A stretch of DNA of 64,000 nucleotides from Haliotis rufescens (taxonomy: Eukaryota). Positions within the stretch are counted from its first letter, which is position 1. Every line of letters begins with the position of its first letter. The notes below the pieces were generated by a model that worked only from the letters and a program-made list of their open reading frames with translations, was not told where the DNA came from and made no database searches. Positions 134-63,118 of this stretch are shown piece after piece. The position numbers and the translations under genes are program-made. The DNA lies in assembly GCF_023055435.1 (NCBI RefSeq), contig NW_025964383.1, forward strand, positions 28,768,001 to 28,832,000, in the 5' to 3' direction.

Positions 134-3100
134 TCATTTGAATTGTTTCATTGCATACTTTACAAACATGTCGACTGTGTGATCAGTGTCAGCATACTTG
201 GGAATAAGACCAACAAAAAAATACAAGAAGCCATGTATAGACCCCGGGGAGTTGTAGACAACCACGTCCACACTGGCGTCCTTCATCCTCTGAGCATACA
301 TCAGACCATCATCCCTCAGAACATCAAACTCAGCTGTGACCACAAACGCTGGAGCCACTCCACTAAGATCCGGAGCCATCAAGGGAGCAAAATAAGGATT
401 CAAAATAATGTTCTCAATTTGATTGGAGATGTTATCATCGCCATGATCTATATTGGTTGGTTCTAAGTTATCGCCGTGATATGCCGTTGGCAGCAGCTTG
501 GAACTAACATATGAAGCATAGATCGATTGTTTCAGCTTCCTAGAAGTGTGGTTGTTGGTACTGAAAGCTTCTATCATGGTTGGTGTGTTAATGCCCATGT
601 AGTTGCACCAATAACGTGTCATTGTCTCGCATTGGAGGAAGTAGGGAGAGGCCTCCTCGTTTGAAACGTAAGATGGGGTTTTGAAACTGAACGCTTGGAG
701 CGCCGGGTAGATGAGCCACTGGAACCTGAGTTTGGGGATGTCTTTCACCTCAGATAGCTTCAGAGCTACTGCAGCTGCGAGATTACCACCCGAGCTGTCC
801 CCTGTGAAGTTAAACGTGAATGGATGAGAGAAACGGTCACACATCTCTTGAACTTGGGTCCAAGGTGTAAATACATATGAAGAGTTGATTTAGGCAGTCA
901 GTGCGTGGAACCACACAATGCTTGTACAGCTCGGTGTTCTTCTTTTAACATCGCTCTTTATAACAAATATTAGGCACAATAAGCAGTAATTGGCCAATCG
1001 AAATCTTCATAATTGATCTTTATTACTTGTTGTGACCTCGCATAATCAAAGTGTGATTTCCAACAATCGACGATTAAACCGTCCCTTACCTGCAATAGCT
1101 ATGTTCTCTGCATCTAGACCATATGTCCCTGCGTGGGCCAACACGTGAAGGGCTGCTTTTAGACATGCCTCGAACGGTTTAGGGAACGGATTTTCAGGGG
1201 CTAGCGGATACCTGTAAGGATTCACAAAATGGTGATGACTTCGGCATGCAAACATAGAAATATTTAGCAATAATGCTGTTGTAATACAGTCATTTTGTGA
1301 TGTCAGAGAAATGGATGATGAGGTTAGGCATACATTATTACCCTACATTTTTACTCACAATTTACAAACTTCTTATATGCATGATTCAAAATCAAATCGA
1401 AGTCTCTTATTGATGCCAGGTCCCTCACACACGCTCAATAGAATTTATAGCAGTATACTCCTTTAGGGAGAANNNNNNNNNNNNNNNNNNNNNNNNNNNN
1501 NNNNNNNNNNNNNNNNNNNNNNNNNNNNNNNNNNNNNNNNNNNNNNNNNNNNNNNNNNNNNNNNNNNNNNNNNNNNNNNNNNNNNNNNNNNNNNNNNNNN
1601 NNNNNNNNNNNNNNNNNNNNGTAAACTAGGTTTATAACACGCTTATAACACGAGAGAGAGAGAGAGAATCTGTATGCTGATCTCGGGAGGTAAAATGTGA
1701 AGTTTGAAATACTTCACGTTCAAAACTTGATGTTGCTGTTGTTTTTGCTGGCATTGTGTCATTGTATCCCATATTTCCTGGCTATGGAGTTAATGTCATT
1801 ATGATTGAATCAGTCAGTCCACAGCGTCTAATACCCATGACGTACTCACTCAATGGAAACAAAGACATAGCCAGATGTTACTGTTAAGTCTGATACTGTA
1901 TCATCGTAGCTGTCTGAAAGATAAAGGCACAAGCTTAAACAATGTAAGTGATCTGTATTTCTATTTGTTACAAGCATTTTCATTCTTCTGAATCATCAAT
2001 TACTTCCACAGTTCTATATTTACAATTGAATACGAATTAGCATTATGAACTATTGAGACACACTTTCTTTATTTGATTTTATAATTATTATTTCCTGTTA
2101 CAAAGTGAAATTTTGTTGTTTCAAAGTTTTAATGACTCAGCGTACAGACATGGATTCAGCTGAATTATCATTGTTCGGCATATACAGCTTATTAGCCGAA
2201 TGTATTTTCATATCACCGTATTTTGGGAATAAAACTGTATTATGCGATTCTTTGGCTTTTATTCCTGATATACTTCATGATGCAGCTTTAGAAACCGCGC
2301 ATGAATACAGTGATTGGGTGAACCGCCTAATTTATCAAGTAATGCCACGTGCCATGCAGCCATATTGGACTATATAAACACGGCGACACTTATCTCAAAA
2401 TAAATTGAACGTGAGTCAATAGTTTACTGATGAAGGAGACATTGCAACGATGTTTTGGAGCTTTAAAGTAGTTCTTCATTTGCATATTCATCGGATCGTG
2501 ATACCAAGTTTATCAGACTGGTTTATCGCATCGACAACACTCGCCATAATACAGGGGAAACACTCGCCATAACACAGGGAAAATACTCGCAATAACACAG
2601 GGAAAACATTCGCCATAACACAGGGGAAACACTCGCCATAAGACAGGGAAAACATTCGCCATAACACAGGGAAAACAATCGCCATAACACAGGGAAAACA
2701 TTCGCCATAACACAGGGAAAACACTCGCCATAAGACAGGGGAAAGACTCGCCATAACACAGGGGAAACACTCGCCATAACACAGGGAAAACACTCCCCAT
2801 AACACAGGGGAAACACTCGCCATAACAAAGGGGAAACACTCGCCATAACACAGGGAAAACACTCGCCATAACACAGGGAAAACACTCGCCATAACACAGG
2901 GGAAACACTCGCCATAACACAGGGGAGACACTCGCCATAATACAGGGGAAACACTCGCCATAAGACAGGGGAAACACTCGCCATAACACAGGGAAAACCC
3001 TCGTCATAACAAAGGGGAAACACTCGCCATAACACAGGGGAAACACTCGCCATAACACAGGGGAAACACTCGCCATAACACAGGGAAAACACTCGCCATA

Positions 3101-4959
3101 ACACAGGGGAAACACTCGCCATAACACAGGGGAAACACTCGCCATAACACAGGGAATCACTCGCCATAACACAGGGGAAACACTCGCCATAACACAGGGG
3201 AAACACTCGCCATAACACAGGGAAAAGAAATTCTGACCAGGGTGTCGGTTCCAAAATAACAGCTAGAGTCGATCGAGAAAAATATCAGTGGAACAAAGAT
3301 GGAAAAAAAAACCGAAAGTGAAAGGTAGCCTAAATAGTCCATGCGCTCACCTTGTAGGCTCCAGTTCAATCGGTACAGCCTATAATGTATGTTATTGGAC
3401 TTTTTGTTTTCGTACCTACGTTTAGGATGGTCCAGCCCCCACCATGAATATATATCACGGATGGCGATGGGTTTGCTGCACTTGTTGGACGATACAGCCT
3501 TACCGGTACACCATCAAACGTGTAGTCTTCCACCTGTGTGAAGATGCATACAACATGACATTAAAAACTTCACAGGGGCAGCTATACAGTAAAATGCGTT
3601 TATAACGAACACGCTTATAACGAACTGACTGATATTACGAACTTATTTCTTGGTCGCGGCCCTTGACTGTATATAATCTGTATATGTGGTAATAACGAAC
3701 TACGCTTATAACGAACTGACTGATATTACGAACTTATTTATTGGTCGCGGCCATTATTTGTATATATTCTGTATGTATGGTTATAACGAACTACGCTTAT
3801 AACGAACTAGAATTAGTGGCCAATATGAGTTCGTTATAACCGTAGTTTACTGTCCATTGACTAAATGCGTGAAGGGGACACAAGCTGGGACACTACCACC
3901 GGGTACTAGGGGCACATATTAACCCCATATCCTTACATGGCAGCTAGATCTTACGTGCTGTGTAATCCGATGTGTGTTACCTTTAGTTGATCTGTCTCGG
4001 GAGGTGGGATTTTGTCTGAGAGGATGAGACTAGTAAGCATTCTCGCCACGTTATCCGGCCTCTCCACACCAAGACCTCCTGCCACGCCTCCCTTCACAGA
4101 AATGTTCATGAAAGGTTTAATGCCAACGACTGGCTCAACAAGGTGAAATGAATGTGCATAGTTATATGGAGCAAACTATAACCGTATTCAATACTGGCAT
4201 CCTGAATCCGTTTAATGTCTTAGAATGGATATGATAACTTGTGGTTGGTTGGTTGGTTTGTTGTTTAACGCCGCACTCAGCAATATTCCATCTATATGAC
4301 GGCGGTCTGTAAATAATCGATTCTGGACCAGACAATCCAGTGATTGATATCATGAGCATCGATCCACGCATTTGGGATCGATGGCATGCATCAACCAAGT
4401 CAGCGAGCCTGACCACCCGATCCCATTAGTCGCCTTTTACGACGAGCATAGTCACCTTTGACGGCAAGCATGGGTTGCTGAAGACCTATTCTACCCCGGA
4501 ATCTTCACGGGTCACATTTGTCAATATTACGTCATATATTTTAGGATTGAAAGATATGAAAAACATGAAACAGCACGAGACATTCCGACTCAAATTGTGA
4601 CGTGTTGTAATCGTCATAATAACAATCGTGCTATCAACCCCTGAGTGAGTGAGTGAGTGAGTGATCGATGTTAAATGTGGAAACAGCTTGAAATCGCACC
4701 AACTCCCTTTAGCTTCGCCTATGACAGACAACATGCAAACAACACTTACACGTCTTAGAAGCAGTTACAGGAATTAAAAGTAGGACAAACCAAATCTCAA
4801 TCAACATACCGTTATTCTAACAACTCTTGCAAATGTGGAGATCATCCTCGCTTGATACGTGTCCACAATACCCTCCATCAACGGTATGTACGCGACATAC
4901 GAAAGGCCCGCAAAGACGACTGCAGCACCCACGAGGCAAGGGAGGTTACAGCAAAACAT
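134..4959 (-). CDS. Arylacetamide deacetylase / neutral cholesterol ester hydrolase 1-like esterase (HSL family alpha/beta hydrolase), 6 exons, ~410 aa
   Basis: Hand-spliced exons 4810-4959, 3981-4091, 3416-3533, 1850-1913, 1090-1211 and 134-801. All have GT-AG junctions, compatible phases and a total of 1233 nt. The protein has an N-terminal hydrophobic anchor, IYIHGGGW, EYPLAPE, the GDSSGG nucleophile elbow, AEFDVLRDDG and HGF. Confidence 0.93.
1473..1620. other. Assembly gap (N run) inside intron 4 of the esterase gene
   Basis: Run of n bases. Confidence 1.
2536..3225. repeat. Minisatellite, 23-bp unit (ACACTCGCCATAACACAGGGGAA), ~30 copies, in intron 3 of the esterase gene
   Basis: Direct reading; it explains the 23-aa-periodic spurious ORFs in all three minus frames. 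Confidence 0.97.
3587..3852. mobile_element. Tc1/mariner-pogo-type MITE (CAGTAAA...TTTACTG termini, internal TTATAACGAAC subrepeats)
   Basis: Imperfect TIRs cagtaaaatgcgtttataacgaac / gttcgttataaccgtagtttactg, preceded by TA. A second family member lies at 6981-7143. Confidence 0.75.
4243..4513 (-). mobile_element. Abundant ~250-bp non-tRNA-headed SINE-like element (family R), representative full copy
   Basis: Head GACCCGTGAAGATYCGGGGTAGAATAGGTCTTCAGCAACCCATGCTTGTCGTAAGAGGCGACTAA, tail GCTGGAATATTGCTGAGTGCGGCGTTAAACAACAA plus (CAAA/CCAA)n. About 20 full or partial copies in the window, e.g. 6137-6385, 9058-9330, 11000-11210, 13961-14210, 15682-15937, 18848-19118, 22660-22870, 24790-24990, 45840-46097, 61205-61448. 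Confidence 0.85.
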
Positions 4960-7945: not shown

Positions 7946-8506
7946 TAGCTTTTCCGAGGCAGCCCGTAATAATAATAACAACTGAGTCAGGATCAGGCAA
8001 ACCAGTTTTTGTCAGCAGGAGCAACGTTCCACGCCATGGAGAATACATGGAGACAACACACACCACCCGAATCCCGTTCAAGTCGACGTTTACGACAAGG
8101 ATAAAGTACTTGGGGTCAACTCTGACACAGAATACTTAAAGACTGTCCCACCGGAACCATTACATATTTTTGTTTAACGTCAAACTGTTAATCGTCTTGG
8201 TCTTTTGAATAGCGAAGAAAGACGAATACGATTCGATCAATCCCACATAAGCAAATATCAAAACAATCAATATGTATGGTCATTTAGGGTCAAGCGCTGT
8301 GTGAAACCTATTAACGTAATATGACCATTTGAGAAAGATAAGTTCCCTGTCTTAAAAGATCAAGTCACTCCCTCTTTGTGTATTGTTATAGGTGATTAGG
8401 TGTACAAGATCATGAAGATATGACTTCTATTTTCTCTCGCCAATTACCAATACAAACATTAGTGTCCACGTATGTTGTGTTGACGAAGGAGTTGGCTTCT
8501 TTGCAA

Positions 8507-32330: not shown

Positions 32331-34001
32331 GACAACAAACAAACAACAGCAATATTCCAGCTATATGACGGCGGTCTGTAAATAATCGAGTCTGACCCAG
32401 ACAATCCATTGATTGACATTATGAGCATCGATCTACGCAATGGCAAACACCGGTACGAAACAGCGGCCCAGGGGGCGCTGCGGAATTTCCGTCCTTGTTG
32501 CTAGCTCCGTATGCTATTGTTTACATACAAAATGCCTTCGCGCTGTTGCGTACCGCAATGTGACAGTCGTTCTGACGGCCACGGTTTTCCTCAAGATCCG
32601 GATATTTGCATAAAATGGCGTGTGGCGATTAGAAGAGAGGATCCGGCATCCAAGAAATTATGGAAACCAAGTCCATACTCAGTGGTTTGTCGTAATCACT
32701 TCCTTGACAGCGACTACAAGCCATCGGACACTGGTAAGCGTCATTAGCAACGAAGTTAGTAACCGAATGAACGGACTGATGTTATTTTTGTCCTTTACCT
32801 CAGAATCTGGTATTGGTGACCTACCAAATGCAATACAATATTCAGTAATTTTGATATGTAAATCAATCATGAATATAGTGTATTAGTCACGGTATGTTTT
32901 TTTTTTATCTGGGTGCACAATATTGGGCTCACCCAAATATTGGCAGAAAAAAATATGTCAGTCGTCCTCTGTGCCGCATTTTACTGAAATAAATAATATT
33001 TTTGGTCCTAATATTAATTATATGTATTGCTATGAAGGACTTTCAGTCAATTCTTTTTTACGTGTTTAATTAAATTTTACATAATTAGAATCTATTTAAA
33101 TTATTCCCACCCTGAAGTTATGCCAGTCTTGAGTAGGCTTATATGCAAAAAACTGTTGAAGTGGATGTTCTATCTATTTAGGAGTAGACCAAATATAGTT
33201 CTATTACTATTATAGAGTTCTATACTATTAAATGAAGTTATCTTAATAATAATAATATTATTTCATTACCGTAAATTTGTCCCAACTAAAATAAACACCT
33301 TTTTTAAAATTCTGCTCAATGTTTTGGAATAATTTGCTTATGTCCTCATTGATAATATTTGTTCATGAATTTACCATGTTTATTGTTATTATGTGAACAA
33401 TAACTAAATTCCTTATTACGATAAAACCTTAATTGACGATATTTTGAAATAATTCTATATATTTTATTTTCAGGAAAGAAAAGACGATTGAAGAGGGGTG
33501 CAATACCAACAGTGAAAGTGAATGAACCAAGGAAACCTAGACACTATGTTATAGATGTGGAAGATGTTCCTGATCTGGGAAGTGAGGTTGAAATTTGTTC
33601 ACCAGGATGCGATGAAATTATTTGTCAGTCATATGCTGTTGATCATACAGAAGATGTGGCCATACAGTGCAGCTTGTTGTTTGAATCGAACTCCAGATTC
33701 TCGATTCATCACATAACTGATAATGACAAAGCAGTTTTGTATTACACTGGTTTTGACAATTATGATCATTTTATGTATTTCTTTCATGTACTTGGCCCCT
33801 CTGTCAATCATCTTTCATATCAGTGTTCTTTGATACCACCAGAAGATCAGCTTTTTATGACTTTGTTAAAATTCAGACAGGCAAGAGATGATTTTGACCT
33901 TTCCATGTTGTTTCATATCAGTGAAAGTACTGTATCAACATTAATTCTCACATGGACAAACTTTTTGTACTTCTGTAACCAGGGTTACCAGGGTTACCGC
34001 A

Positions 34002-34356
34002 CAGGTAGACTGACCAGAATGATGGATGAGGACTGTATAGCAAGTGTTTCTCTGATACATGGGACCTAACAAGCTGAGTTTGGTAAATACCATCACTAAT
34101 GAACGTATAGAGCTACCCAGGAAGGTATCTCTATCATGGGTTAAGGCAGGTAGACTGACCAGAATGATGGATGAGGACTACACAGCAAGTGTTTCTCTGA
34201 TACATGGAAAATAACAAGCCGAGTTTGATAAATACCATCACTAATGAGCGTATAGAGCTACCCAGGAAGGTATCTCTATCATGGGTTAAGGCAGGTAGAC
34301 TGACCAGAATGATGGATGAGGAATACATAGCAATTGTTTCTCTGATACATGGGAAC
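34002..34356. repeat. 145-bp tandem repeat, ~2.4 copies, at the deletion junction of the LTR element
   Basis: CAGGTAGACTGACCAGAATGATGGATGAGG at 34002, 34147 and 34292. Confidence 0.95.
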
Positions 34357-34509
34357 GTACAATATCCCATAGTTGTTAACGAATCGGGTAGACCTTCTGC
34401 TCCACTATCTTGCACCGTCGCTACTCAAACAGCTGCTGTTGGGGATGTAAAATTAATTTATCCGTCAGTTCCGCAGAGACCAGAGAGCATTGAAATGTCA
34501 CAGTTTTAG
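34204..34509 (+). pseudogene. C-terminal remnant of the retroelement's penultimate ORF (possibly env cytoplasmic region)
   Basis: Open frame ending ...RPSAPLSCTVATQT...LIYPSVPQRPESIEMSQF*, placed where env would end; the 5' part is lost in the deletion. Confidence 0.45.
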
Positions 34510-35522
34510 AAATCTAAGTGATCTCAGACATACTAGTGTCCTCTTGTACAAATGTTGATGTTATATTGTATTCAAAGATGTTGATTAGACCAGATGTTGA
34601 TTAGACCAGATGTTGATTATATTATAGATGTTGTATACATGAATATATGGTATACAAATGTGTGTACTTATGAATTGATGATAAAATGTATTGAATTTAT
34701 GAGAGAAGATATATCTGTTATATGTTACAGGTATATTGAATAAGGTGCATTGCATTGCATCGCAGGTTGTTTTGTGATTGTTTAAAAATGTATACTGTAT
34801 TGGTAGATGCAGATGTTATATACAGAAATATTTGTGAGCAATTTTACTGATAGAAATATGTATGTTGTGGCATGTTTGATGTCTTCAATACTTGTTGATG
34901 GACCGTAACCATCAAAAAGGGAACATTGGGTAGTACCCTATATAAATGCATGCTCAGAAATGTAACATTAAGTTGATGTTGTGTTGAAAAAAAAATATAG
35001 TAATCTGTTGTGTGTTTTAAATTGAGGTGTTGATTATGAAGCATGATATAGATACTGTAGCTATTTGCTTTGAAGTAGTTAAAATGATACCTAAACAAAA
35101 TGAATGTTCTCAACGTATATAATATACCGTAGTCTACATACTGGCAAGTTATGCAAAAACCTAATCAGTCTGATTGCAAATGTAAATAGAACTGCTTGGC
35201 CGCAATCAGACTATACGCTTTAAACGTGCCATGATAGTTCACGGGGGTTTGGTGTGGCTAGCTCGTACCCCGAAGTTTAGTGCAATTTGTGATATCGTTT
35301 GTGATTCCAATTATCTCTTTAGAGCATATCGCATACAATTACGCATATTTCACTTATCGCTTATCACGCACTTGCTTGGCTAGTCACCGGTCGTTGACCA
35401 CAGGGGTACACCTCCAATAGTTAGACGTCCGTGTAAGACATTGTTGTGTCCTGCTATATATATCTCAGTATTGTGAGTAATTATATTGTATTTAGTTATC
35501 ATCAATTACCTATAGACTAAAA

Positions 35523-36926
35523 ATGAACAGAAATAGGATTACTGGTGCTTTTAAAAATTCCACCAATCATGGTGAAACTGTCACCATTATGCAGAGACAG
35601 GTGAGGACATGGGCTGAATGGTCCTTGTTCTTTGCACAACTGTTGACTTTAAGTGAAGTTGACATGCCTGAAGTTATTTATTTAGAGGTACCAGAACTGA
35701 TATCTCCATATATTCATGAGGAGATTTTGGCAATCTTCGCTTATGATTTAAAGGAACCTATTTTCGACAACCGGTTGCCCATCGCCACCACTATGAAAAA
35801 TAGACGGTACCGAAAATTTCAAATTCGACCCATAACCATGGTCATATATGGGATGTATTTCGGCTTCTTTGATATTGTTAAGTTGGGATTAGTCGGCATG
35901 TTGACACCGTCTAATGTAGGAGATTCTTTAATCATATGTTATGCTTCACCCTATCGAAAAAAATTGATGCCCTTCTATGCTTACTTGCGAGGAGCTGGGT
36001 ATACTACTGATCAAGTAAATAAGTTTTGTGTATTTGGGGATGAAGGTAATTTAAACATTCAGCTTAGGTTGCGGTGGACACCACTTGCCCACAATGATCA
36101 TTTCCCTTTCCACAATACCTGGAAAAGGTGTGGATATTGCCTGGAGGACTTGCTTGATGTAGACCCTTATGCAAGTAAGGGCTACGAAGTACAGCATTGT
36201 GCGTGGTGTAAACGCATGTACCATGCAACATGTGCCATGCATGTGTTGATTATTTCCAAAAAGGTCAAGTTTGTGTTAAGGGATAGTATTGCTGGCACAT
36301 TAGGCAGGATGACAGAACAGGACAATGGACATTTGTTTGTTGATAGCAATAATGCACTTCGGTGTGAAGTATGTCAGGTTAGGATGGATGCTAATATACG
36401 AGGGGATATATCAGATACTCTGGCACTACCCTATTTTGAGGCCCAAAGAAGGTCCGGGACTACCACCAGCTATGCTTGTGAGGTGGTCCGAAGTTTATTT
36501 CCAGATGGCATGGCATTTGGAATGATAGGGAATGAGTTCCAATTCCTCATTCCAGAACTCCAGATGGACGATCCTCTCGAACATCAGGACTTTTATGCAA
36601 CCATCTCAGAATATCAGTTAGAATTTCCTAACGCTTCGGAAAGTCAAACTTTCCACTATCGGACTTGTAGGGATGAGCAGCCTCATTCTACAAGATGGTG
36701 GAGAGCCGCTTTCCTCGTAAATTTTTCTCATTTGATGGTACATCACTGGCCTTATTCAGACCAGTTTATTCGAGGTGGATTTTTCCCAATAAGAGCAAGT
36801 CCACCTCCTGTTGTGGTCCCTAATATACAGGTAGTTGATAGTGACAGTGACAGCGAAAGTGACGCTTCATCAGACTCAGGTCTACACTTTAGAGTTAACC
36901 CTGACGACTTGGACTGGTTAATCTAG
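35523..36926 (+). CDS. Intact intronless 467-aa accessory ORF of the LTR element with a C4HC3 (PHD/RING-CH-like) finger and an acidic SIM-like C-terminus
   Basis: ATG to TAG, 1404 nt in AT-rich DNA. Pattern CGYC-x19-CAWC-x4-H-x2-C-x43-CEVC; tail IQVVDSDSDSESDASSDS. A TATA-like CTATATATAT lies ~65 bp upstream. Confidence 0.85.
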   Translation: MNRNRITGAFKNSTNHGETVTIMQRQVRTWAEWSLFFAQLLTLSEVDMPEVIYLEVPELISPYIHEEILAIFAYDLKEPIFDNRLPIATTMKNRRYRKFQIRPITMVIYGMYFGFFDIVKLGLVGMLTPSNVGDSLIICYASPYRKKLMPFYAYLRGAGYTTDQVNKFCVFGDEGNLNIQLRLRWTPLAHNDHFPFHNTWKRCGYCLEDLLDVDPYASKGYEVQHCAWCKRMYHATCAMHVLIISKKVKFVLRDSIAGTLGRMTEQDNGHLFVDSNNALRCEVCQVRMDANIRGDISDTLALPYFEAQRRSGTTTSYACEVVRSLFPDGMAFGMIGNEFQFLIPELQMDDPLEHQDFYATISEYQLEFPNASESQTFHYRTCRDEQPHSTRWWRAAFLVNFSHLMVHHWPYSDQFIRGGFFPIRASPPPVVVPNIQVVDSDSDSESDASSDSGLHFRVNPDDLDWLI

Positions 36927-37340
36927 GGAGTACTAAGGATACATGATTAGGACATTGATGATAAGTTGTTAGTTGGTGTTGTGATTTGTTGTGCCTGAAG
37001 AAAAAAAAAAATGCTCATATGTCTATATATATATACCTGAAGTTAAGCGTTGAGAATCTGACTATCTGCATCTACCGAAGAAATTTTTTTTTATAAACCT
37101 GAAACCTTTACAAAGAATGATAATTTGATTATATCTTAATAAGCTTCAGATGTTATTCTCAGATAGGTACAACCCAAGACAGATCCTATCTGAGACATTA
37201 CTTTGTAAAATTTTATTATATTGATTTATCTGGTCCTCAGATACATACATACACATCTTGTTACATATTGATATTGTACCATTGTATTTACATCTTATAT
37301 TTTATTATCATTGGTCAATCGCATGGGACATGCTCTACAA

Positions 37341-37353
37341 CGGGAAGGGCATG
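37341..37353 (+). other. Polypurine tract-like sequence abutting the 3' LTR
   Basis: CGGGAAGGGCATG immediately before TGTAACCAGGGT. Confidence 0.7.
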
Positions 37354-38300
37354 TGTAACCAGGGTATTTTGGAAAAAGGGTTTTTAATATTTACTTAAAA
37401 TGTAGTTTACTAAATTGAGCTTTTGGGTAAAATATGGATGCATATGAGAGAAGTGACCGTACGGGGTGAGGGCATAACCCCCAGGGCAAATGATTATCGA
37501 TTTTACTTCTCTTAGTGATAGAGATAACATTTTCATTAGTACAATGAAATTAGCAGAATCTGGTCTTGCAATATAAGTATCAGAGGGGAAATGAATGGAT
37601 GGAACAAACTGTCAGTCTTGAAATGATCGAATATTTCTCACTACTACTGCTTGATTGGAATGTCTGATTAACATGATTAAGCATCTTTAAGACGCTTTCC
37701 AGTCTGACAGAGTGTTGGATTTTTGTCATAAAGAGGTTGAATTATGAGTATGTTATTAAGAGTTTATCGGTTGACCAATGAGTTAGGAAATTAGCTGAAG
37801 GTTTGGTTTAGAAGGGCTTGATAGAAGAACTGATTGGAACGGAAATTGGGGTTCATATGGAGGGGAGCGTTAGGACTCATTTCACATGACGTCAAATACT
37901 ATTTCGGTGTGGGGAGCAAAAATTATCATGGATAGTATTTAGGGAGTTGTCCGAGAGTGGTGCGGGGAGTCGGGAGGAGACAGCTGAACAGAAAGGTTCA
38001 CTGTGATTTTGGGATCCCGAGTCAGAAAAGAAGTAGAGGTAACGTTCATCAGAAAAACCATCAGGCTCTTCAACCATCATATAGGTATGTGTTGTATTTA
38101 TATCAGGCAACAACAAGAACTAATCTGAGGACCATGTGTACATGTTTATGATTAATTCTATCATAAATAAAAAGAGGCTGGAGCAAACCATCGGACTTGT
38201 GATTTTCAAGAGAGCTACATCATCCCTAGAACCAAGGAGTAGTTGATAGGTAGAAGTGACCATAGGTAGAAGGGTAAAGTACCCGGAACCTAAGGTTACA
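37354..38300 (+). repeat. 3' LTR (947 bp)
   Basis: TGTAACC...GGTTACA inverted termini; first 12 bp identical to 33974-33985; TATA-like TATTTATAT at ~38095 and AATAAA at ~38166. Confidence 0.85.
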
Positions 38301-40499
38301 CTTCCAACTGACTGAGCTAAACATATGGGCATCACATGACACCGTTCAAGATACAATGCCAGAAAACTTCAAGGAGCGCTTCCCATCAACAAGGGTCATT
38401 CTAGATGCAACTGAGACTCTGATTTGTAAGCCAGGCAATGTAGATTACCAGAGGGCCACTTTCTCAAGGTACAAGAACAGGAACACTCTGAAAACTATGA
38501 TTGGTTGTTCTCCTCGAGGTCTTGTTACCTATGTCAGTGACAGTTATGGTGGATCAACAAGTGACAGGCAGATTATTGAGAGGTCAGAGTTGTGCATGCC
38601 AGGTGTGTTTTGTGCAAGAGACAGTATTATGGCGGACAGAGGCATTATGGTGCAGGACATATTTTCATCTTCAGATGTAAAAGTCAACACTCCAACAATG
38701 CTCAAGGGTCGAAGTCAGCTTGAACCCCAAGAGGTAGTCCACGACCGCAGAGTATCATCCAAGAGAATTCATATTGAGCGTGTTATTGGACTTGGCAAAA
38801 CTTACAAAATTCTTAAGAGGGAGCTTCATCCATCAAAAGTTCCACTAGGCTCTAGAATTGTTCGAATTTGCTATATGTTGTCAAACTTTCGCCCAAGCAT
38901 TGTCAACCGACTTGCATGAACAAATGGCCATTCTAAACATACTTCACACATTCATGTATGTTTGTATGTCCTAGTGTGAGGTCTGTTCATAGCATTGAAA
39001 GTACAACAGTTTACTGCTAGTAGACAGGTGTGATTGTCTACTGTGACTGTATGGTGGGTATTAGACACGGCTCACTGCTGTATGATTACTGTTTACTCTG
39101 TTCCTTAATGATCTTGTTCAACTAATACAATCCGGAAACTGCAAAGGTATGTTTGTGAATGAGTTAGTTGATAAAATTAGAACATTGATGTTTGCTGATG
39201 GCATTGTGAATGCAAGTGACGCTATTGTCAAATTGCAGAAATCAGATGTAGCAAGCTTTTGTGGCAAATATGTTATGAATGTAAATTTAGATGAAACAAT
39301 TATGATTGTATTTTGCAGAGGAGGACTTTTCAAACAAATTGAAAAATGGTGGTTCAAAGGTGAAATACTTTAAATTGTATCAGCATACAAGTGCTTGTGG
39401 ATATTTGACACCCCAAAGTCTTAATGGGGTTTGGTTAGAAATACATTAGCACAACAACCTGTATAGCCATGAATATTTTGCTCACATTTATATATACTGC
39501 AAACATATCTTTAAGAGTTGTGTTTATTGTTGACAGAATGATTGTGCCAGTCATTGGTTATGGACCAGGTATGTGGGGTTATTCACAAGTTCAGACAGTT
39601 TAAGTGTACACATGAGATCATTGTCTGTTAACACAAGTACAGATAACGCGGTTGTTATAGTACAAGGATGTTTGTGGATTATGCACACAAAGTAAGCATA
39701 TTTATGTAGAAATGTTTATAGATTGTGGATCAATTTTTAGCGACAAACATGTAACCGTACTTTGGGCTGAATTCTGAATGCAAACTTAAACTTGAAAGTA
39801 CAACTGGAATGTGTGAGAAATGTTCAAATATAACAACTTTATTGTGTTTTAACAATTGAAATGATGAATATATGTACATAGCACTGTACCCATGAAGGGC
39901 CATGATATTACATACCGGGTAACGGTAATGAAAAAATACCATTGAATACATAATGAAAAAATACCATTGAATGTCTCACATTGTTGGTTGATCTGTGCTT
40001 AGGATCTCTCTCTCTTACCACTTTAACAATGAATGCAATAGTACAACACCATCACACGGTTGTCAGACAGACATTCAGTCATGTAATTTCCCTGCAAAGG
40101 AGCTCCACCACATTCCCAAGGTCAGTGTTCGAAATAGACATCAGTCCCTATACCCATAGATGACAGATTTGTTCAAAGATGTTTTACAAGCTGATAATTT
40201 CCTTGATAAATGTATCACCATCTATAACCACTGAGTCTCTGGGAACTCGGGTGTGATAGCAGTCATAGCTTCTGGATGACTGGTTGTATTTTGTAATTTT
40301 ATATTGCAAGAGTATATCTCACTGCTTCAGCTAACATGTTTGGGCCTACAGTTTCTCCATTAGGCCTACCCCTTATTCCAATATACTTCAGGGTTACAAG
40401 TGATATAAAAGAATCAAACAGTGTCAAAAGCTTCAGAAAAGTACACAAAAAGACAGTAGTATATGCATATATATTGAACTGGTTGGGTCTGAATACAGT

Positions 40500-41061: not shown

Positions 41062-44000
41062 TTAACAAATGCAGTGAGTAGCAATGTAAGGCTTGAGGAA
41101 AGACTCAAAGAATAATGAGAGTCTGGGAATCAAACTTCCTGTACAGTATTCCTCATTGAGTGATATTTTCTGAACAAAGAAGTCTTTAAACGTACAAACA
41201 GCAAATAAGCAGTATTTTCGCTTTGATAGATACATCTGACCCTGCACTTGAAAGTAGTAATTACTGTTTTCTTTCAGTTGCATGAGGCCATTTCTCTTAC
41301 AAAGATAAGGAAAGAGTTTCCCAGGAGCAATGACCTCATTTCTGGCACTGTAAGGACATTTAACCTCAACAATGGTGTTAGAATCAATGACACCGTCTGG
41401 TGTTGCTGCAAGGAAAGGGAGTTCAGAGTCGACAAACATTCCACAACTATGAACATGAACATTACAGGCTATTTCAAGTTTGGCAATAGCTTTGGGTTCC
41501 TGCTGTAACCCATGCCTCACAGAGTTACAAACAAGTTTTCTTCCAGAGACAATTTGTTCACATAATTTAGTTTTGTTTCTCCTTGTAGTACATTTGCAAA
41601 TTGTCCCAAACTGAGATGCGGTAAGCCTCCATCTCCTCTCCTCATGCCACAAGCTACACTTGGCCTGCTTTCTTGTCTTTGACTCTAAGTCTGCAGCCTG
41701 GTCATCTGTAATCTGTCAAAGATAGACAGAATAAAAATAAATAAACAAAAACTTATCAATAAAATTCTTGAAACTCCTTTACAAATCAGAACAAAACAAT
41801 TCAATCAGATAACATGGCTAAAGCAGTTTAACCATATCGTATCTAGCTCCAAGGGACCAGAAGAAATCCATTTGCATGCAATTCAACCTAACCATCAACT
41901 ACTACACTGCAACGTCTGAAGATATTGTGTCTTCTGCAGTAAGAAATGAACTAACCATGAAATGAATAATAGCAGGCATTTTTTTAGAAAAAAGTGAATT
42001 ATTTATTTGAATGCAATAAGCAGTAGCTATTGAAAGCCTAAAATATAATAACTTAATATAGTGATTTGTGAGAATGCATAAAACTCAGGATTGAAGATTT
42101 CTTCATTACGGAAAACATGAGTGTAAAATACCTTCAAGGCTCTCTCCACCCAGTATTCTGTGAAGGGCTTGTCCAAATAGTCATGATCTCTTACTGCAGA
42201 TGACAGACTGGCTCTTTCAAACAGGTATCTGATCGTGATATCCTTAGATGCTGAAGAGCAGTAGTTGATGGTGATGTTTCGCACATGGTCCCTGTAAGAT
42301 GCACTATTTCTGTATTTTGCCGGTCTTGGGTCATCAAACATGGTTGGTCGCTTCGCCCCACACTTGAATGAGTCTGCTTTCTTCGGTGAATCTATTAAGA
42401 GGCAAAAAAAAAAAAGAGGAATAATTTTTTGGCTGAAAATATATTACTAATACTGGGACACTTCAGTATATAATATTTGAATGTAGAAACAGCAAATAAG
42501 CAGTATTTTCTCTTTGATAAATACAGGAAGTGAAATTGTCATAATTTCAGACAATTCATAATTTGGGGTATATGCCAAACCTGTCACGGGGGAAACAATT
42601 GAAAGGGTGATCACACACTGCAGAAATAGCTTGTGAGGCTTTTAAGTAGTTATGGCTAAGCTATACGAGCAATGCCTACTGAATACATTAGCAGAAAGAT
42701 CAGTTTCATATGTCATGGAATAATTAATCACTCTGTATATTTAATTCTAATAAATATGAACATATAACCAAGGGGTACTTAATTTATTTTAATGTCTGCA
42801 GCTGAACAGAATATCTATTTTTTCAAACCATATAAAAATTTCCTCATTTTAAGAAAACAATTGACACAAAAAAACTTGATAATTAATTCATTCTAACATG
42901 CTGTATAAGCACTTTGAATACCAATATATTTACTACACAGTAAACATGGTAAGGTACCTGAATATTCCTTTTGTGGCCTGTGGAATGTCTGCAGTTTGTC
43001 TGTGCAGGATCGCCTCACAGCAATCACACCTGTAGACTTGAACTGTGACAACATGAGGAGGACAGAAGCGAGGTGTTTGCAGGTTCCATGGGGGCCTTTA
43101 CCAGCTGGGCACTCACAGTGTGTGTTAACCACTTCACCACATTCTGCTATTATGATGCGAAGACTGTAGGATACCTAAGTCAAGGAAATCAAAACTTGTA
43201 ATACAGAGTTATCTAAGTATCATCATGATAACATATAATGAATTATTCCTGCAAGTGACAATGTTTGGTATAACTGACACATTATTTACACAAAGGTGAA
43301 ATATTTCTTATTACAGACCTAAATGTACAATCATGAATGGCAAAACTGTGAATGATTACTCACTAATTTAAAATCATTAATCACTGACAATTCAATATGT
43401 GGTTGAGAATGGAACTTATGACCAATCTGTTTCTAAGGTAACAAACCTTTTTCTTCATAGCAGCACTGACTAGACCACTGAAGTAGGCATGGTGATGAAT
43501 GACAACACTGCAAGCCAGGACATGATTGGATTCCAAAAGTTGATGTCCCTTCTCAATAGCCTTCAAATCTCCAGTCTGAAAGCAAATAATTTCATTTTGC
43601 TAATTTCAGTATCTCATTTATTCAAAAGATTTCTCATGTATGTTTCACAGGATATGTATTATCAAACACACCTGTTAATGTTAGTGTTACTATTGGTAAT
43701 AATTTCAATAAATTTGAGTAACGCATAGAAATATATTGCACACTTACCTCTTCATTATCTACAGCTAACCGGTACCTAAAATACGCCTCGACATCCGAAG
43801 AGGCCAAGGGCGGTAAGCTGTCTTTGTGTAGTGGCATCAGTTGCTTGAAACCTGTGACTGGCCATGATTCAAATCGGATAGGCTCAGGTAACTTAATGTC
43901 ATCTTCTGAGTGGCAGAAGTTATTATTTCTGTCATAGGACTCCAATCTGAAACAAATTTTACAATACACCTGTATATATTTGGAGAACATTTTTTTATTT

Positions 44001-46629: not shown

Positions 46630-47170
46630 TTAATTCCCTCTATTTGGCATTCCTTACGGATAAGAATACCATATAAGTACCTGAACATTATGATCCAGAT
46701 TTGTACGATGAAACAGACAGCACAATAGGACTTTTAACAAGTGATCACATTGTGTTTGGTGGGAATTGGAATATCATTCAAAGTAACTCGCTAGATTCGT
46801 ACAACAATAAAGAATGTTAATAATTCAAAGTTCAATAAAGGGTACTTAAACTTAAATGTGAATTGGACTTGTCAAAGCTTCGAGGGAACTGAAGCCTTTT
46901 GCTAAGCGATGCATATGGACAACATAACCCTTTAAAACAACCCCGCTATCTTTACCCTTTAGACTATCAGAACTGCAGCGCAAGAAAGGCTTTTGGAAAA
47001 TGAATAATTCACTTCTTAAAGACAAAAGTTCCTTTGCGTTAGTAATATCAATCCAAATGAAAAGGAATAATCGGTATAGATGTAAATAAAGCGTCTTCTC
47101 AATAAGCTTTTAACTTCTCAGGAAAATGATCGAATGAATGATCAGAGGCACCGCTACACACTTGTCATCG
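46630..47170 (+). mobile_element. Highly decayed L1/Tx1-type LINE ORF2 (endonuclease region) remnant
   Basis: Fragmentary GGNWNIIQ..LDSYN, NPLKQPR and KGFWKMNNSLLKDK motifs in collinear order. Confidence 0.6.
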
Positions 47171-47299
47171 TGTCAGAAAAGAACGTGAACAGTTGGAAAG
47201 GGGCACAGAACATAATTCTTGTAAATGATAGCAATTCGATGCAAATGATCCCATGTGAAATACACTAATCACACCACATAGCCCCCTTACCCCACACAG

Positions 47300-49613
47300 C
47301 ATACCGTGGCATAGTGTATTTACTAACTTCAACTGTCAGCAGCCCTCTTACTGTGGCATAATGTATTTACTAACTTCAACAATCAAGAGCCCTCTTACTA
47401 TGGCATTATGTATTTACTTACTTCAACAATCAACAGCCCTCTTACTGTGGCATTATGTATTTACTATCTTCAACAATCAAGAGCCCTCTTACTGTGGCAT
47501 AATGTATTTACTTACTTCAACAATCAACAGCCCTCTTACTGTGGCATAATGTATTTACTTACTTCAACAATCAACAGCCCTCTTACTGTGGCATTATGTA
47601 TTTACTAACTTCAACAATCAAGAGCCCTCTTACTGTGGCATAATGTATTTACTTACTTCAACAATCAACAGCCCTCTTACTGTGGCATTATGTATTTACT
47701 AACTTCAACTATCAAGAGCCGTCTTACTGTGTCATAATGTATTTACTTACTTCAACAATCAACAGCCCTCTTACTATGGTATGGTGTATTTATTAACTTC
47801 AACAATCAACAGCCCTCTTACTGTGGCATAATGTATTTATTAACTTCAACAATCAACAGCCCTCTTACTGTGGCATAATGTATTTACTTACTTCAACAAT
47901 CAACAGCCCTCTTACTATGGCATGGTGTATTTATTAACTTCAACAATCAACAGCCCTCTTACTGTGGCATAATGTATTTATTAACTTCATCAATCAACAG
48001 CCCTCTTACTGTGGCATAATGTATTTATGAACTTCAACTATCAAGAGCCATCTTACTGTGGCATAATGTATTTATTAACTTCAACAATCAACAGCCCTCA
48101 TTATTGTGGCATAATGTATTTACTAACTTCAACTATCAAGAGCCCTCTTACTGTGGCATAATGTATTTACTTACTTCAACAATCAACAGCCCTCTTACTG
48201 TGGCATTATGTATTTACTAACTTCAACTATCAAGAGCCGTCTTACTGTGTCATAATGTATTTACTAACTTCAACAATCAACAGCCCTCTTACTATGGCAT
48301 AATGTATTTATTAACTTCAACAATCAACAGCCCTCTTACTGTGGCATAATGTATTTATTAACTTCAACAATCAACAGCCCCCTTACTGTGGCATAATGTA
48401 TTTACTTACTTCAACAATCAACAGCCCTCTTACTATGGCATGGTGTATTTATTAACTTCAACAATCAACAGCCCTCTTACTGTGGCATAATGTATTTATT
48501 AACTTCATCAATCAACAGCCATCTTACTGTGGCATAATGTATTTATGAACTTCAACTATCAAGAGCCCTCTTACTGTGGCATAATGTATTTACTTACTTC
48601 AACAATCAACAGCCCTCTTACTATGGCATGGTGTATTTATTAACTTCAACAATCAACAGCCCTCTTACTGTGGCATAATGTATTTATTAACTTCATCAAT
48701 CAACAGCCCTCTTACTGTGGCATAATGTATTTATGAACTTCAACTATCAAGAGCCATCTTACTGTGGCATAATGTATTTATTAACTTCAACAATCAACAG
48801 CCCTCATTATTGTGGCATAATGTATTTACTAACTTCAACTATCAAGAGCCCTCTTACTGTGGCATAATGTATTTACTTACTTCAACAATCAACAGCCCTC
48901 TTACTGTGGCATTATGTATTTACTAACTTCAACTATCAAGAGCCGTCTTACTGTGTCATAATGTATTTACTTACTTCAACAATCAACAGCCTTCTTACTA
49001 TGGCATGGTGTATTTATTAACTTCAACAATCAACAGCCCTTTTACTGTGGCATAATGTATTTATTAACTTCAACAATCAACAGCCCCCTTACTGTGGCAT
49101 AATGTATTTACTTACTTCAACAATCAACAGCCCTCTTACTGTGGCATGGTGTATTTATTAACTTCAACAATCAACAGCCCTCTTACTGTGGCATAATGTA
49201 TTTATTAACTTCATCAATCAACAGTTCTCATTATTGTGGCATAATGTATTTACTAACTTCAACTATCAAGAGCCCTCTTACTGTGGCATAATGTATTTAC
49301 TTACTTCAACAATCAACAGCCCTCTTACTATGGCATGGTGTATTTATTAACTTCAACTATCAAGAGCCCTCTTACTGTCGCATAATGTATTTACTAACTT
49401 CAACAATCAACAGCCCTCTTATTGTGGCATAATGTATTTATTAACTTCAACAATCAACAGCCCTCTTACTGTGGCATAATGTATTTGTGAACTTCAACTA
49501 TCAAGAGCCGTCTTACTGTGGCATAATGTATTTACTAACTTCAACAATCAAGAGCCCTCTTACTGTGGCATAATGTATTTACTTACTTCAACTATCAACA
49601 GCCCTCTTACTGT
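47300..49613. repeat. Satellite/minisatellite, 47-bp unit, ~49 copies
   Basis: GCCCTCTTACTGTGGCATAATGTATTTACTAACTTCAACAATCAACA repeated. Confidence 0.98.
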
Positions 49614-51221: not shown

Positions 51222-51949
51222 CTACTCAAAACAAGATAATATCAAAATGGAACCCAGGACAATGCTTCATTTCTAGTCTCAGAAATGAAAATGTTTTACA
51301 GAAAAAACAATATAATAAATAGGAGCCCAGAGACTCTTCATTAGTCTAATATAGACTTGAATGGGCTGTCGCTCACTTCAGCTGTAACGACCAGTGGACA
51401 GCACAAGATTAACTGATAAAAACAACCCAGAATCTCGCTTGTGGGCCCTACAGAATTAGACAGAACCGAGAGCTCAGACAAATTATTCCAGACTTGAGTT
51501 GGATCTAGTTCTTATTTTTTCTCTAGGGCCTGGGAGGCAGGTTAGGTTAACGCTATAAGATCTGGACAAGCAGTCATACATACAAATGCAAATACACTTT
51601 CCCTCAAGAATGCGACGAACTCTATTTCACCTCCTTCCCCTGCTTTGCTGACAAAAAAAAGATGAACATTATATCATATAAGTGTCACACATTATAAAAT
51701 GCAAGTATGACAATGTCACACCATATTGCTTATGAGAAACACAAGTATGCATAAAAACATGAACTGATTACGACGGTAGACTCTTAATGTTTTTATTTAA
51801 TACCACCCACCAACCCGCACATTTATTCATTTATCCTTCTAAAATAGCTTGTAGTTTGTGTTTAGGATTTAAACACATTTTCTACAGTGAATGACACCAC
51901 GTGTTTGGGTATTACTCAATGCCTCGTAACCTTGTTTCATTGTACACCC

Positions 51950-52692
51950 TCATTAACCGCAACATCAACCTCGGTACAGTTAGAACCTGACCTACAGCAC
52001 ACTCACACTGCCCTCCACAGCATAACATCCTCATCAACCGCAACATCAACCTCGGCCCTTTTAGACCCTGGTCTTCAGAACACTCACCCTTCCTCCACAA
52101 TAGAACATCCACATCAACCGCAACATCAACCTTGGTCCTGTTAGACCCTCACCTCAGCATACTCACCCGGCCCTCCACAACAGAGCATCCTCATCAACCG
52201 CAACATCAACCTTGGTCCTGTTAGACCCTCACCTCAGCATACTCACCCGGCCCTCCACAACAGAGCATCCTCATCAACCGCAACATCAACCTTGGTCCTG
52301 TTAGACCCTCACCTCAGCATACTCACCCGGCCCTCCACAACAGAGCATCCTCATCAACCGCAACATCAACCTTGGTCCTGTTAGACCCTCACCTCAGCAT
52401 ACTCACCCGGCCCTCCACAACAGAGCATCCTCATCAACCGCAACATCAACCTTGGTCCTGTTAGACCCTCACCTCAGCATACTCACCCGGCCCTCCACAA
52501 CAGAGCATCCTCATCAACCGCAACATCAACCTTGGTCCTGTTAGACCCTCACCTCAGCATACTCACCCGGCCCTCCACAACAGAGCATCCTCATCAACCG
52601 CAACATCAACCTTGGTCCTGTTAGACCCTCACCTCAGCACACCCACCCTGCCTCCACAACAGAACATCCTCATCAACCGCAACATCAACCTT
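51950..52692. repeat. Minisatellite, 80-bp unit, ~9 copies (central ~6 identical)
   Basis: TCATCAACCGCAACATCAACCTTGGTCCTGTTAGACCCTCACCTCAGCATACTCACCCGGCCCTCCACAACAGAGCATCC. Confidence 0.98.
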
Positions 52693-52789
52693 ATTGGCTG
52701 TCAAAGCAAAATGTGAAACATGTAAACAGCAAAACGTGTCTAGACGATAGCCTCTGTAGAGAGAGCTGATATTATGTATGTGATAGACG

Positions 52790-60257: not shown

Positions 60258-63118
60258 TCTTGTGTCGTCAGGATCGAGTTGCAGAACGATAATGGCGTAT
60301 GTGAGCAATGTGCCCAACACCTGTAAAACAACAAACATAAATGTACTCCCTGTCGAAAGTTAACATTATATCTAATTAATGATCTGGTACGACGTGTAGC
60401 AATAGTGTCTCCTAATTCTATTTTGACACATGCTGAGGATTGATACAAATACAACTATCCTGGCAGACATATAGAACAAACGAGTGAGTGAGCGAGTTGG
60501 CTTCACCGCCGCTTTTAGCAACACTTCAGTCATATTATGGTGTGTCAGATTGATGTCGAGGACCGAAGTGATTGGTCAATCAGAGGTATCAAATCACAAT
60601 AAACCCCCTCAGATTGAAACAGCCGATCTGAACATCCATATATTTTACTATCACAGAAAAAGGGTCTGTAAAGGATTAACACATTAAAACGTGTTGGTAT
60701 GATTTACTCTCATTTCCTTCATTTAATTAAAAACACTTACAAAATTATATTTAGGAATGACAAAGTTAGGAATTGAGATGGGATTGTCACTCCTTCCTAC
60801 CTGTTCGGGTGTTAATGATGTACTCACCGTTAATATTGCCGATGAGTCCACGGTAAACAGGCCATGCACTGTGAATCCAATGACAGGTCTTATGAGGCGG
60901 GTCGTAAATAGATTGACCTGCAAGTAAATGATTGATTTCACCAACAGTGAAACTTCAGGAACTGTACAAGATAATGGATATCGTTGGGTTTTCTCATTTT
61001 GAAACAACAGGGAATGTATCATGAAGATATTTGCAATGGGGGACAACATTACTAAATACTTACAGAATGCAACGTGGTGCCGGACAGTGTCGTAAGATCA
61101 CTATGAAGCAGGTCGTCCACACAACCGTGAGCCTGAAACAATGGTACAGGGTTTAATGTTTGGAGATCTGAACCTGCGAGAAGGCCTAGAACTCTATGAT
61201 CGGTGTTTGTTTGTTTGTTGTTTAACGCCACATTCAGCAACATTTCAGCTATATAACGACTGCCTGTAAAACAATGAGTCTTCATCAGGCAATTCAGTGA
61301 TTGATATCAAGAGCATCGATCCAGGCAACTGGGATACGATGACATGCATCAACCATGTCAGCGAGCCTGATCACCCGATTCCGTAAGTCGCCTCTTACGA
61401 CAAGCATGGGTTGCTGAAGACCTATTCTACCCCGGATCTTTACGTGTCTGGAACTCCATGAAATTATTCAGACAGGCCTCATTTACTTTTGCAATGTACT
61501 TTGTTTAATTTGTATGTTGAATGCCGACTTGGAGTCAATAATATGTATCCATTACACGAAATTGAACATGCCCTTGTTGTTATCAAATAATGTCACTATG
61601 TGACAGAACATGAATTCAGTGTATTCGTTTAAAAACGCGTTTTTTTAAACACTCCTCTAAAACAGGAAACCTTCACATTCGTTCAATTGCCTTAACACCA
61701 CAGTCGCACAATAATATAAGTGTAATATAACCAAATTAATTAAAATATGTACTGTTTACCGCCAAATGTACAAGCAATATCCTGGAGGGTAGTGTATCGA
61801 TAGTGTATGCGTCTGTGATCATCACTGATCGTCACACGGTCGGTTTCAGTTATTTAGTGAGTGAGTGAGTTGGGTTTAACGCCGCTTTTAACAGCACTCC
61901 AGTTATATCACGGCGTGTCACCTTAATGTTGGAGGAAAGCCCGAAGTGGTGCAGGTCTCAGACGTTTACCACTTCGGTGAAACCCACGAGCACGGGTACG
62001 GTGCTGACAAACCTAGAAACATAATCGGGGCGAACCGGGATTCGAACCCACAATCATAGGTTTCTGGTGTGCCAAAGGGACGCAACTCTGCATAGCGAAT
62101 CGCGGCGCCTTAGACGAGTGGGCCACCCGTGCCCCCTTCAACTGACACAGAAGCACTGATGTTTTGTACACAGTATATACAGACTGCTAATGGGCGTACT
62201 TACCATTGAACTTATATAGGTCCCGATTAATAAAGTCGAGAACAAGAACACGATTCCAACACCAGTCACGAAAACAGACGACATGGTTTCGTCTAGAGTC
62301 AACGTTCCTCTGATCAGTCCAAATAGTACAAAACACAGAATAGGAATCTGTGTTGTGAAGCAGGCGAACATGACATGTGTAACAATCTTGTTACCAGTCT
62401 CCAGTACTCCACAGAGAAGGATGTGACGTTTCCGTAATGATTCACATTGTTCGTTCACCGTCTTGGACTCAACCATTTCTTTCACCAGCTGGTTGACATG
62501 AGAAAATTCCTTACCAAGAAATCGAGCAAGAGCAATAAAAAATAGATATGGTCCAAATATACCAAGGTTTCTGTAAGCGTGAAATAATGTGGAGAATAAA
62601 ATGCCTACGACATAACTAAAACCCTCAAGTCTGTAAAATGGATAATATGCTCTATTTACCCAGCTGCTATTTAATGGTTGAAGCAAAGCCCACATCAGAC
62701 AGAAAGCAGTGAATATAGCTAGAACTGTTATAATAAACATTCTCTTGAATAAGACTGCTGCCTTTTGCAAATTAACTGCACTGCCATAGATCATGTAGAA
62801 AGATGACAACTCGTTCACAAAAGCATCAATGTATTTCGAGAATGCAATGGCAATAGCTGGTACTTGGTAAGCGCTCCATGCAAAATTCAGCCAGAAAGTC
62901 AATGATACTGTAAAACTTCCGGTCAAGCCTTTTTCCTCCGTGAATATTAAGCTGTATCCAGTAAGAAAACCCAGGATGACCGAAGACACAAATACACTAT
63001 ACAGGCACTGAGCCCATCGCCACCGCCTCTTACTCTCAAGTGAAACATACATGCCTCCTACTTTCAGAAACCATTTGAAATGACCCATGCAAATCTCAAC
63101 GTCAGCAGTGACGGACAT
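60210..63118 (-). CDS. Gustatory receptor-like (Grl / 7tm_7) seven-TM chemoreceptor, 4 exons, ~394 aa
   Basis: Exons 62204-63118, 61064-61132, 60828-60917 and 60210-60320. Multiple TM segments, R..H..LC after TM4, GFTVHGLFTVD, and the TM7 signature GTLLTYAIIVLQ. Three C-terminal phase-0 introns. The start codon is inferred. Confidence 0.92.
61857..62136 (-). mobile_element. tRNA-derived SINE (family V) in intron 1 of the receptor gene; partial copies at ~7610-7713 and ~54930-55330
   Basis: Head GGGGCACGGGTGGCCCACTCGTCTAAGGCG...GGTTCGAATCCCGG, a V-domain-like GTGGGTTTC...CTTTCCTCC body, and an (ACTC)n tail. Confidence 0.75.

Follow-up and report, generated by a model that had tools for sequence, protein, structure and literature searches.

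A fourth, zinc-finger gene between env and the 3′ LTR of errantivirus-type elements in the abalone genome

The stretch of Haliotis rufescens DNA analysed here (the window; 64,000 nucleotides, positions 28,768,001 to 28,832,000 of contig NW_025964383.1) contains an LTR element at 33974-38300, bounded on both sides by the 4-bp target duplication CTTC (33970-33973 and 38301-38304). What remains of this copy, all on the + strand, is a 12-nt stub of the 5′ LTR (33974-33985; the first 12 nt, shared with the 3′ LTR), the 3′ end of env (33986-34509, with a repeated 145-nt unit and 94-96% identity to the env ends of fuller copies; the last 101 codons lie at 34204-34509), a 467-aa open reading frame, ORF4 (35523-36926), a polypurine tract (37342-37349) and a 947-bp 3′ LTR running from TG to CA (37354-38300). 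The copy has neither gag nor pol, and most of env and the rest of the 5′ LTR have also been deleted. An earlier, sequence-only reading of this DNA had already noted the loss of gag and pol, and had described ORF4 as fully open and as lying between the last structural ORF and the polypurine tract and 3′ LTR; all of this was confirmed, the last structural ORF being the C-terminus of env. At 33974-34000 the 5′ LTR has collapsed to a near-palindromic stub, like two LTR ends joined, with the target duplication intact.

The element interrupts a Harbinger/ISL2EU-type DDE_Tnp_4 transposase gene, the 5′ part of which, with the HTH, lies at 33437-33973 (+; HTH_Tnp_4, 51.4 bits on 33833-33973) and the catalytic region at 38305-38919 (+; DDE_Tnp_4, 114.9 bits). 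The host of the insertion is an ISL2EU/Harbinger-type DNA transposon, with a YqaJ exonuclease at 41062-41715 (-), on the opposite strand to the transposase. Elsewhere, the window holds three tandem copies of a multi-exon gene (8400-29000; exon ORFs at 8420/19537/26095 and 11418/23250/28515, with acidic C-termini) and tandem arrays at 47160-49500 (47-nt units), 2400-3300 (23-nt) and 51900-52700 (80-nt). From their look we take a hydrophobic 326-aa ORF at 62138-63118 (-) to be gustatory-receptor-like and an exon at 134-844 (-) to be the C-terminal exon of a carboxylesterase-like gene.

The TATA-like box that the sequence-only reading assigned to ORF4 is present, at 35455, within a candidate internal promoter (35414-35497, +) comprising a CCAAT box at 35414, a TA run at 35455-35463 and an Inr-like TTAGTT at 35492. 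Because the + strand of the window has 1.6 TATAWAW motifs in every kb, a promoter belonging to ORF4 is only a candidate. The TA run is kept in all seven copies read, the whole spacer is about equally conserved and, in these copies, the proximal promoter showed no special conservation relative to the rest of the spacer.

Neither the length of ORF4 nor its C4HC3 pattern is due to chance: the longest ORF in the shuffled 6-kb region was 174 aa, with none of 200 shuffles reaching 467 aa, and even a loose form of the pattern appeared in none of 20,000 protein shuffles. Searching the abalone genome with the protein of this family, which we call family A, gave at least 28 matches at no fewer than 13 loci, at least four of them full length without stops, and a search with the LTR gave at least 47 matches, many of them paired. 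Element DNA continued beyond the ORF at 13 of the 13 ORF4 loci among the matches listed, which shows that the gene is not a one-off retrocopy. Fuller copies have the order LTR-gag-pol-env-ORF4-LTR. The family A pol contains PR, RT, RH and IN in Ty3/gypsy order (Pfam, copy G000:C368), and env is F-like, with a furin site (RSKR) followed by a hydrophobic fusion peptide and a C-terminal transmembrane segment; Pfam gave no Baculo_F match for the family A env itself, and the env of a related family, G, which is 24-26% identical to it, does pass Baculo_F. Together with the paired LTRs, primer-binding site, polypurine tract and target duplications, these features place family A among the Ty3/gypsy errantiviruses (env_F). 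ORF4 is therefore the fourth gene of an env-carrying Ty3/gypsy (errantivirus-type) family, in the position between env and the 3′ LTR in which, as had been suggested from the window alone, complex retroviruses place their accessory genes. We regard it as nearly certain that ORF4 is a genuine accessory gene under selection. Parts of ORF4 are also covered by contigs of four public runs (four species labels; their RNA status is a guess).

Some copies of the family are organised differently. One (C334; L035-L036) has a different gag, about 50% identical, no pol, an intact env and ORF4, and LTRs that are 99.9% identical; the copies at L053-L059 likewise combine family A LTRs with this gag and no pol. 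Another (L051-L052; G000:C368) carries an internal tandem duplication of ~1.2 kb over the start of env.

ORF4 is under purifying selection, in the range of env and pol. Comparison of the window ORF4 with 11 other copies, by the method of Nei and Gojobori, gave dN/dS values of 0.16-0.35 (for the two copies furthest from the others, local alignment favours the better-conserved stretches), and over all 66 pairs the values were 0.13-0.72, with one undefined. In samples drawn in the same way, from copies covering more than a quarter of a gene, env pairs gave 0.08-0.79 and pol pairs 0.12-0.50. The comparison among copies that the sequence-only reading had proposed thus yielded values below 1, and the effect is specific to the frame, since the other two sense frames of ORF4 gave 1.15-2.69 (three pairs). 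Within the protein, dN/dS was 0-0.19 in the finger region (four pairs) and 0.09-0.36 in the tail (three pairs). Changes shared between copies were 51 synonymous and 38 nonsynonymous, against 36 and 68 for private changes (Fisher p = 0.002); that the shared changes, and not the private ones, are mostly synonymous points to selection while the elements were active and decay after insertion. In the same family A pairs, dS for ORF4 (0.14-0.20) is about twice that for env and pol (0.07-0.09), and the spacer between them differs by only 5-10%; the history of ORF4 would seem to reach further back, perhaps through recombination between sub-lineages.

The gene has nevertheless been lost repeatedly. In two copies (G000:C24, at 25.30 Mb, and C368) it was removed by one 2.28-kb deletion between 11-nt microhomologies, which correspond in the window to 34674-34684 (+) and 36954-36964 (+). 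The LTR pairs of these copies are 99.8% and 97.4% identical and their target duplications differ, from which it follows that the deleted form itself inserted twice. A separate loss, with a remnant kept, is seen in the C605 copy (35.62 Mb), and seven shorter deletion derivatives of family A are also without ORF4. Gag and pol are not found together in any of the four copies whose ORF4 is open, and the copies with the best-kept gag, pol and env are without ORF4. Losses in copies that inserted imply that ORF4 is not needed in cis, so that either its product works in trans or the gene is on its way out of family A; in this family ORF4 may be close to dispensable.

Searching the genome with env recovered sister families, among them family B, whose env is 33% identical to that of family A and which has, at the position of ORF4, an ORF of 456-457 aa that is 19-24% identical to ORF4. 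This homologue keeps all eight zinc ligands as well as W228 and R231, and profile comparison over the finger confirms the homology (hhalign 88%, E 2.9e-6). The ORF is open in four copies, and the six family B copies read have gag, RT, RH, IN, env and ORF4 in order, between LTR pairs that are 99.4-100% identical. Between subfamilies B1 and B2, dN is 0.31 at a near-saturated dS of 1.6-1.9; one young family B pair gave a dN/dS of 0.81 on 15 changes. No ORF was found at the ORF4 position in families C, D, E and F (two copies read in C, and four, two and three full copies in D, E and F, respectively). Trees of pol and env make C the sister of B with A outside, all at 100/99 or better, and the simplest reading of these sequences would be that the common ancestor of A, B and C had ORF4 and that C then lost it; exchange through recombination is a possible source of the same distribution. 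At least seven env-carrying Ty3/gypsy families have young copies in this genome, and family D (L096-L098, L105-L107) has LTRs that are unusually long (2.3-2.6 kb) and, within any one copy, 99.8-100% identical.

Family G has a different ORF after env, of 318-331 aa, whose C4HC3 finger is compact and resembles a RING (spacing 2-18-0-4-2-18-2) and whose Pro/Ser/acidic tail ends in a Trp motif. It gave 27 genome matches, among them L129:3099-4052 (+) and L130:5750-6742 (-) (G000:C479 and C279), its dN/dS is 0.22-0.64 (nine pairs) and it is deleted in one copy. No homology to the family A or B protein was detected by hhalign (0.08% and 0.21%), and the family G gene is possibly a second, independent gain. 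An acidic end with Trp is common to the ORFs of all three families.

The finger of ORF4 (aa 203-284; 36129-36374, +) has the ligands C203, C206, C226, C229, H234, C237, C281 and C284, with a spacing of 2-19-2-4-2-43-2, and all eight are invariant in families A and B. The sequence-only reading had given the ligands, their spacing and the tail ending DDLDWLI correctly, and had offered RING-CH and PHD as the candidate folds. RING-CH fingers have the spacing C-x1-C-x7-H; here it is C-x2-C-x4-H, with Val or Leu at C6+4 instead of the helix Trp, and the RING-CH (RINGv) assignment was rejected. The central C-x2-C-x4-H-x2-C is the usual spacing of PHD and C1 domains. Across 11 fingers, Pfam returned C1_1 in all 11, PHD in nine, zf-RING_16 in seven and zf-HC5HC2H_2 in four, the sole match above the cutoff being C1_1 on the isolated window finger (28.9 bits); PHD did not exceed its cutoff in any of the 11, and the best sub-threshold E-values were 0.095 for PHD and 0.068 for zf-RING_16. 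C1 domains follow the pattern H-x12-C ... H-x2-C-x7-C. In families A and B, Ser takes the place of the last of these Cys and a distal C-x2-C is invariant, and this favours a cross-brace fold of PHD or RING type; a C1 domain was rejected for this reason, and because the first His is found in family A only.

Between PHD and RING, the evidence leans towards the latter, although the leans from the structure model, Foldseek, the Atlas and single residues are weak, not independent and all below threshold. Histone-reading PHD fingers have Asp after C3 and Trp at C7-2; the family A and B fingers have neither, the residue two before ligand 7 being Leu in A and Asp in B rather than an aromatic. A helix-favouring run follows ligand 6 in both families (mean cost 0.20-0.37, compared with 0.61-0.71 for whole proteins), and is absent from family G. 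By the usual residue rules, the hydrophobic residue at C1+2 leans to RING, as does the Arg after the last Cys in family B (C-x2-C-R-x-P-F), where the window protein has Gln, not Arg; with 43-64 residues, the insert separating ligands 6 and 7 is much longer than is usual in a RING. The full-length structure model was unusable (pLDDT 26.6), and that of the finger (pLDDT 42.8) has a 10-residue helix at 51-60, between ligands 6 and 7 (pLDDT about 55). Foldseek with this low-confidence finger model gave a best E-value of 0.25, with RING E3s in 18 of 47 weak rows and PHD in one, and for family B the Atlas lead was a zf-RING_2 cluster at 0.86, below 0.9. Passages of PMC4192618 ascribe E2 binding in RINGs to a helix between ligands 6 and 7, and those of PMC4897099 recount that K3 and K5, at first read as PHDs, proved to be E3s.

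The Pro/Ser/Asp-rich tail (aa 428-467; 36804-36923, +), with the SIM-like IQVV and the terminal DLDWLI, is a feature of family A only. An I-x-V-V core is present in four of the eight family A tails read (IQVV in the window copy and IPVV in three close copies), and the four older copies have PNVV or PNVI in its place; family A does retain the acidic tract and the closing DWLI, even in a ~50%-identical copy. The homologous family B protein has no such tail, and a conserved SIM was accordingly rejected. The phospho-SIM put forward by the sequence-only reading is thus not a feature of the family, and the ICP0-like architecture of a SUMO-targeted ubiquitin ligase (STUbL) is weakened with it, the finger being C4HC3 and not a C3HC4 RING.

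The reading that we tentatively prefer is that ORF4 encodes a RING-like E3 ligase that would work in trans against a protein of the host defence, a proposal that rests on the position of the gene, the selection on it, its invariant ligands and its repeated loss in cis, together with the RING-leaning features of the finger and the RING-looking finger of family G. The C4HC3 finger would fold in a RING-like manner and bring in an E2 enzyme of the host, target binding would fall to the large N- and C-terminal regions, and a host restriction or silencing protein would become ubiquitinated. No transmembrane segment is predicted in the product, which would be soluble and, translated either from a separate transcript or from a spliced one, would act in trans, so that copies dropping ORF4 could still spread while other copies supplied it. 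We favour this ligase over a PHD-like chromatin reader, in which ORF4 would be an LTR transactivator with its acidic, Trp-containing C-terminus as activation domain, an explanation that we consider a real but lesser possibility. Foamy-virus Tas provides a positional comparison for such a transactivator, and the PHD-type spacing, the sub-threshold PHD and zf-HC5HC2H_2 matches, the promoter-like motifs upstream and the C-termini of families A (DLDWLI, its like kept in the 50%-identical copy), B (DWEAEF, DWL) and G (LEIAWSDVE) all suit it, but the missing histone-reading residues, the helix after ligand 6 and the single PHD row from Foldseek do not. An unlikely alternative is a Rev- or CERV-like regulator of RNA export or processing, in which the finger would be structural or RNA-binding. 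Such elements presumably need a spliced or separate env message besides genomic RNA, families A and B have basic patches, and there is a Ty3/gypsy precedent in CERV of C. elegans Cer1, required for genomic RNA export according to PMC10309623; yet families C-F and several family A copies have near-identical LTR pairs without ORF4, which is thus not essential in cis.

Slightly less probable again is a strict ICP0-like STUbL with a functional phospho-SIM: an E3 role is plausible, the window tail does have I-Q-V-V before a Ser/Asp tract, and the low dN/dS of the tail and the retained acidic tract in family A are in keeping with it, but the I-x dipeptide is confined to the four youngest of the eight tails, the motif is single rather than clustered and family B is without the tail. 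A C1-like lipid- or membrane-binding module, aiding particle assembly or budding with Env, would explain why C1_1 was the best Pfam match in every finger and why in family A, as in C1 domains, a His precedes the first Cys by 13 residues; it is nevertheless very unlikely, since the match leaves out both ends of the 53-position model (it spans 11-47), Ser replaces the last Cys, family B has no such His and a distal C-x2-C is invariant instead. Scarcely credible, finally, is a captured host retrocopy carried neutrally, to which the repeated deletion from elements that still inserted might have pointed. The dN/dS of about 0.2 is specific to the frame, the gene lies in element DNA and it has persisted in two families at saturated dS; the genome matches listed (28 and 42) included no host gene that could be the donor, with flanks inspected at 13 family A loci and six family B copies, and we rejected this explanation. 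A broader reading, which is possible though on balance doubtful, is that mollusc errantiviruses include ‘complex’ forms with their own counter-defence ubiquitin ligase behind env, the C4HC3 gene having been acquired at least twice (A/B and G) and shed repeatedly once endogenous. If true, this would be an invertebrate parallel to accessory genes of the Vif, Vpx or ICP0 type, hinting at a mollusc restriction or silencing factor.

Searches with the single protein found no ORF4 homologue outside abalone in a 5.8-billion set; with alignments A1 and A2 the same set gave one match each, to a family B gene model (Haliotis rufescens, H. cracherodii). The window protein had no match in 1.84 billion representatives (single protein only) or in the ESM Atlas, a sequence search of the PDB returned only chance rows of COX6B1 type, and viral and metagenome contigs held no ORF4 homologue; these sequence sets are poor in unannotated ORFs of animal elements, and the blanks do not bound the range of ORF4. 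Ty3/gypsy elements with env are usually portrayed as simple, with gag, pol and env only, and, to our knowledge, few examples are known in animals of anti-silencing proteins encoded by an element. The literature searched (e.g. passages of PMC12440569) describes no comparable gene in an errantivirus, although Repbase and subscription journals, outside that search, may catalogue such families; the passages seen of the Troyka paper and PMC6338049 hold nothing on this gene. Chary and Hayashi (PMC13524379) annotate mollusc errantiviruses with gag, pol and env, ten of the elements being from gastropods and none from Haliotis, and their main text, as far as seen, mentions no accessory gene, ORF4, extra ORF, PHD or gene downstream of env, although their element sequences may hold such ORFs unremarked. 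As described in that text, the mollusc elements resemble those reported here in gag-pol(PR-RT-RH-IN)-env order, F-like env, LTRs and 4-bp target duplications, and the abalone primer-binding site is complementary to the tRNA-Ala end given there for Gibbula magus errantivirus 5; they differ in that no fourth gene after env is described. Errantivirus-type elements with a fourth, zinc-finger gene are seen here in three families of one genome, which suggests a fight with host defence, or self-regulation, as in complex retroviruses.

ICP0 and RNF4 have C3HC4 RINGs and several SIMs, and C4HC3 is the ligand order of FANCL-type RINGs. HSV-1 ICP0 and RNF4-type STUbLs are like the window copy in combining a zinc finger with a SIM-like motif, and in the virus-like carrier, but ORF4 has a C4HC3 finger and one unconserved SIM-like motif. 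With the viral RING-CH proteins K3 and K5, as passages of PMC4897099 describe them, ORF4 has the C4HC3 order in common; compared with these and the FANCL type, it has no transmembrane segments, no RING-CH spacing, no Trp at C6+4 and a long insert. The ORF3 of bdelloid LTR elements and CERV (PMC5408684 and PMC10309623) are, like ORF4, extra element-borne genes gained and lost repeatedly; the bdelloid GDSL/DEDDy ORF3, as the first of these sources describes it, stands in place of env, whereas ORF4, with its C4HC3 finger, comes on top of an intact env. Predicted to be soluble, the ORF4 protein could be assayed alone, and knowing what it binds would identify the host pathway by which these elements are restricted in a farmed mollusc. 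Foamy virus tas/bet and epsilonretrovirus orf-A/B are accessory genes between env and the 3′ LTR. Complex retroviruses share with the ORF4 elements the position of a non-structural gene and a candidate internal promoter, but they are Retroviridae, whereas the elements with ORF4 are Metaviridae, with a C4HC3 finger and no sequence similarity to them in any search; if the E3 reading is true, these elements would be the invertebrate counterpart of complex retroviruses.
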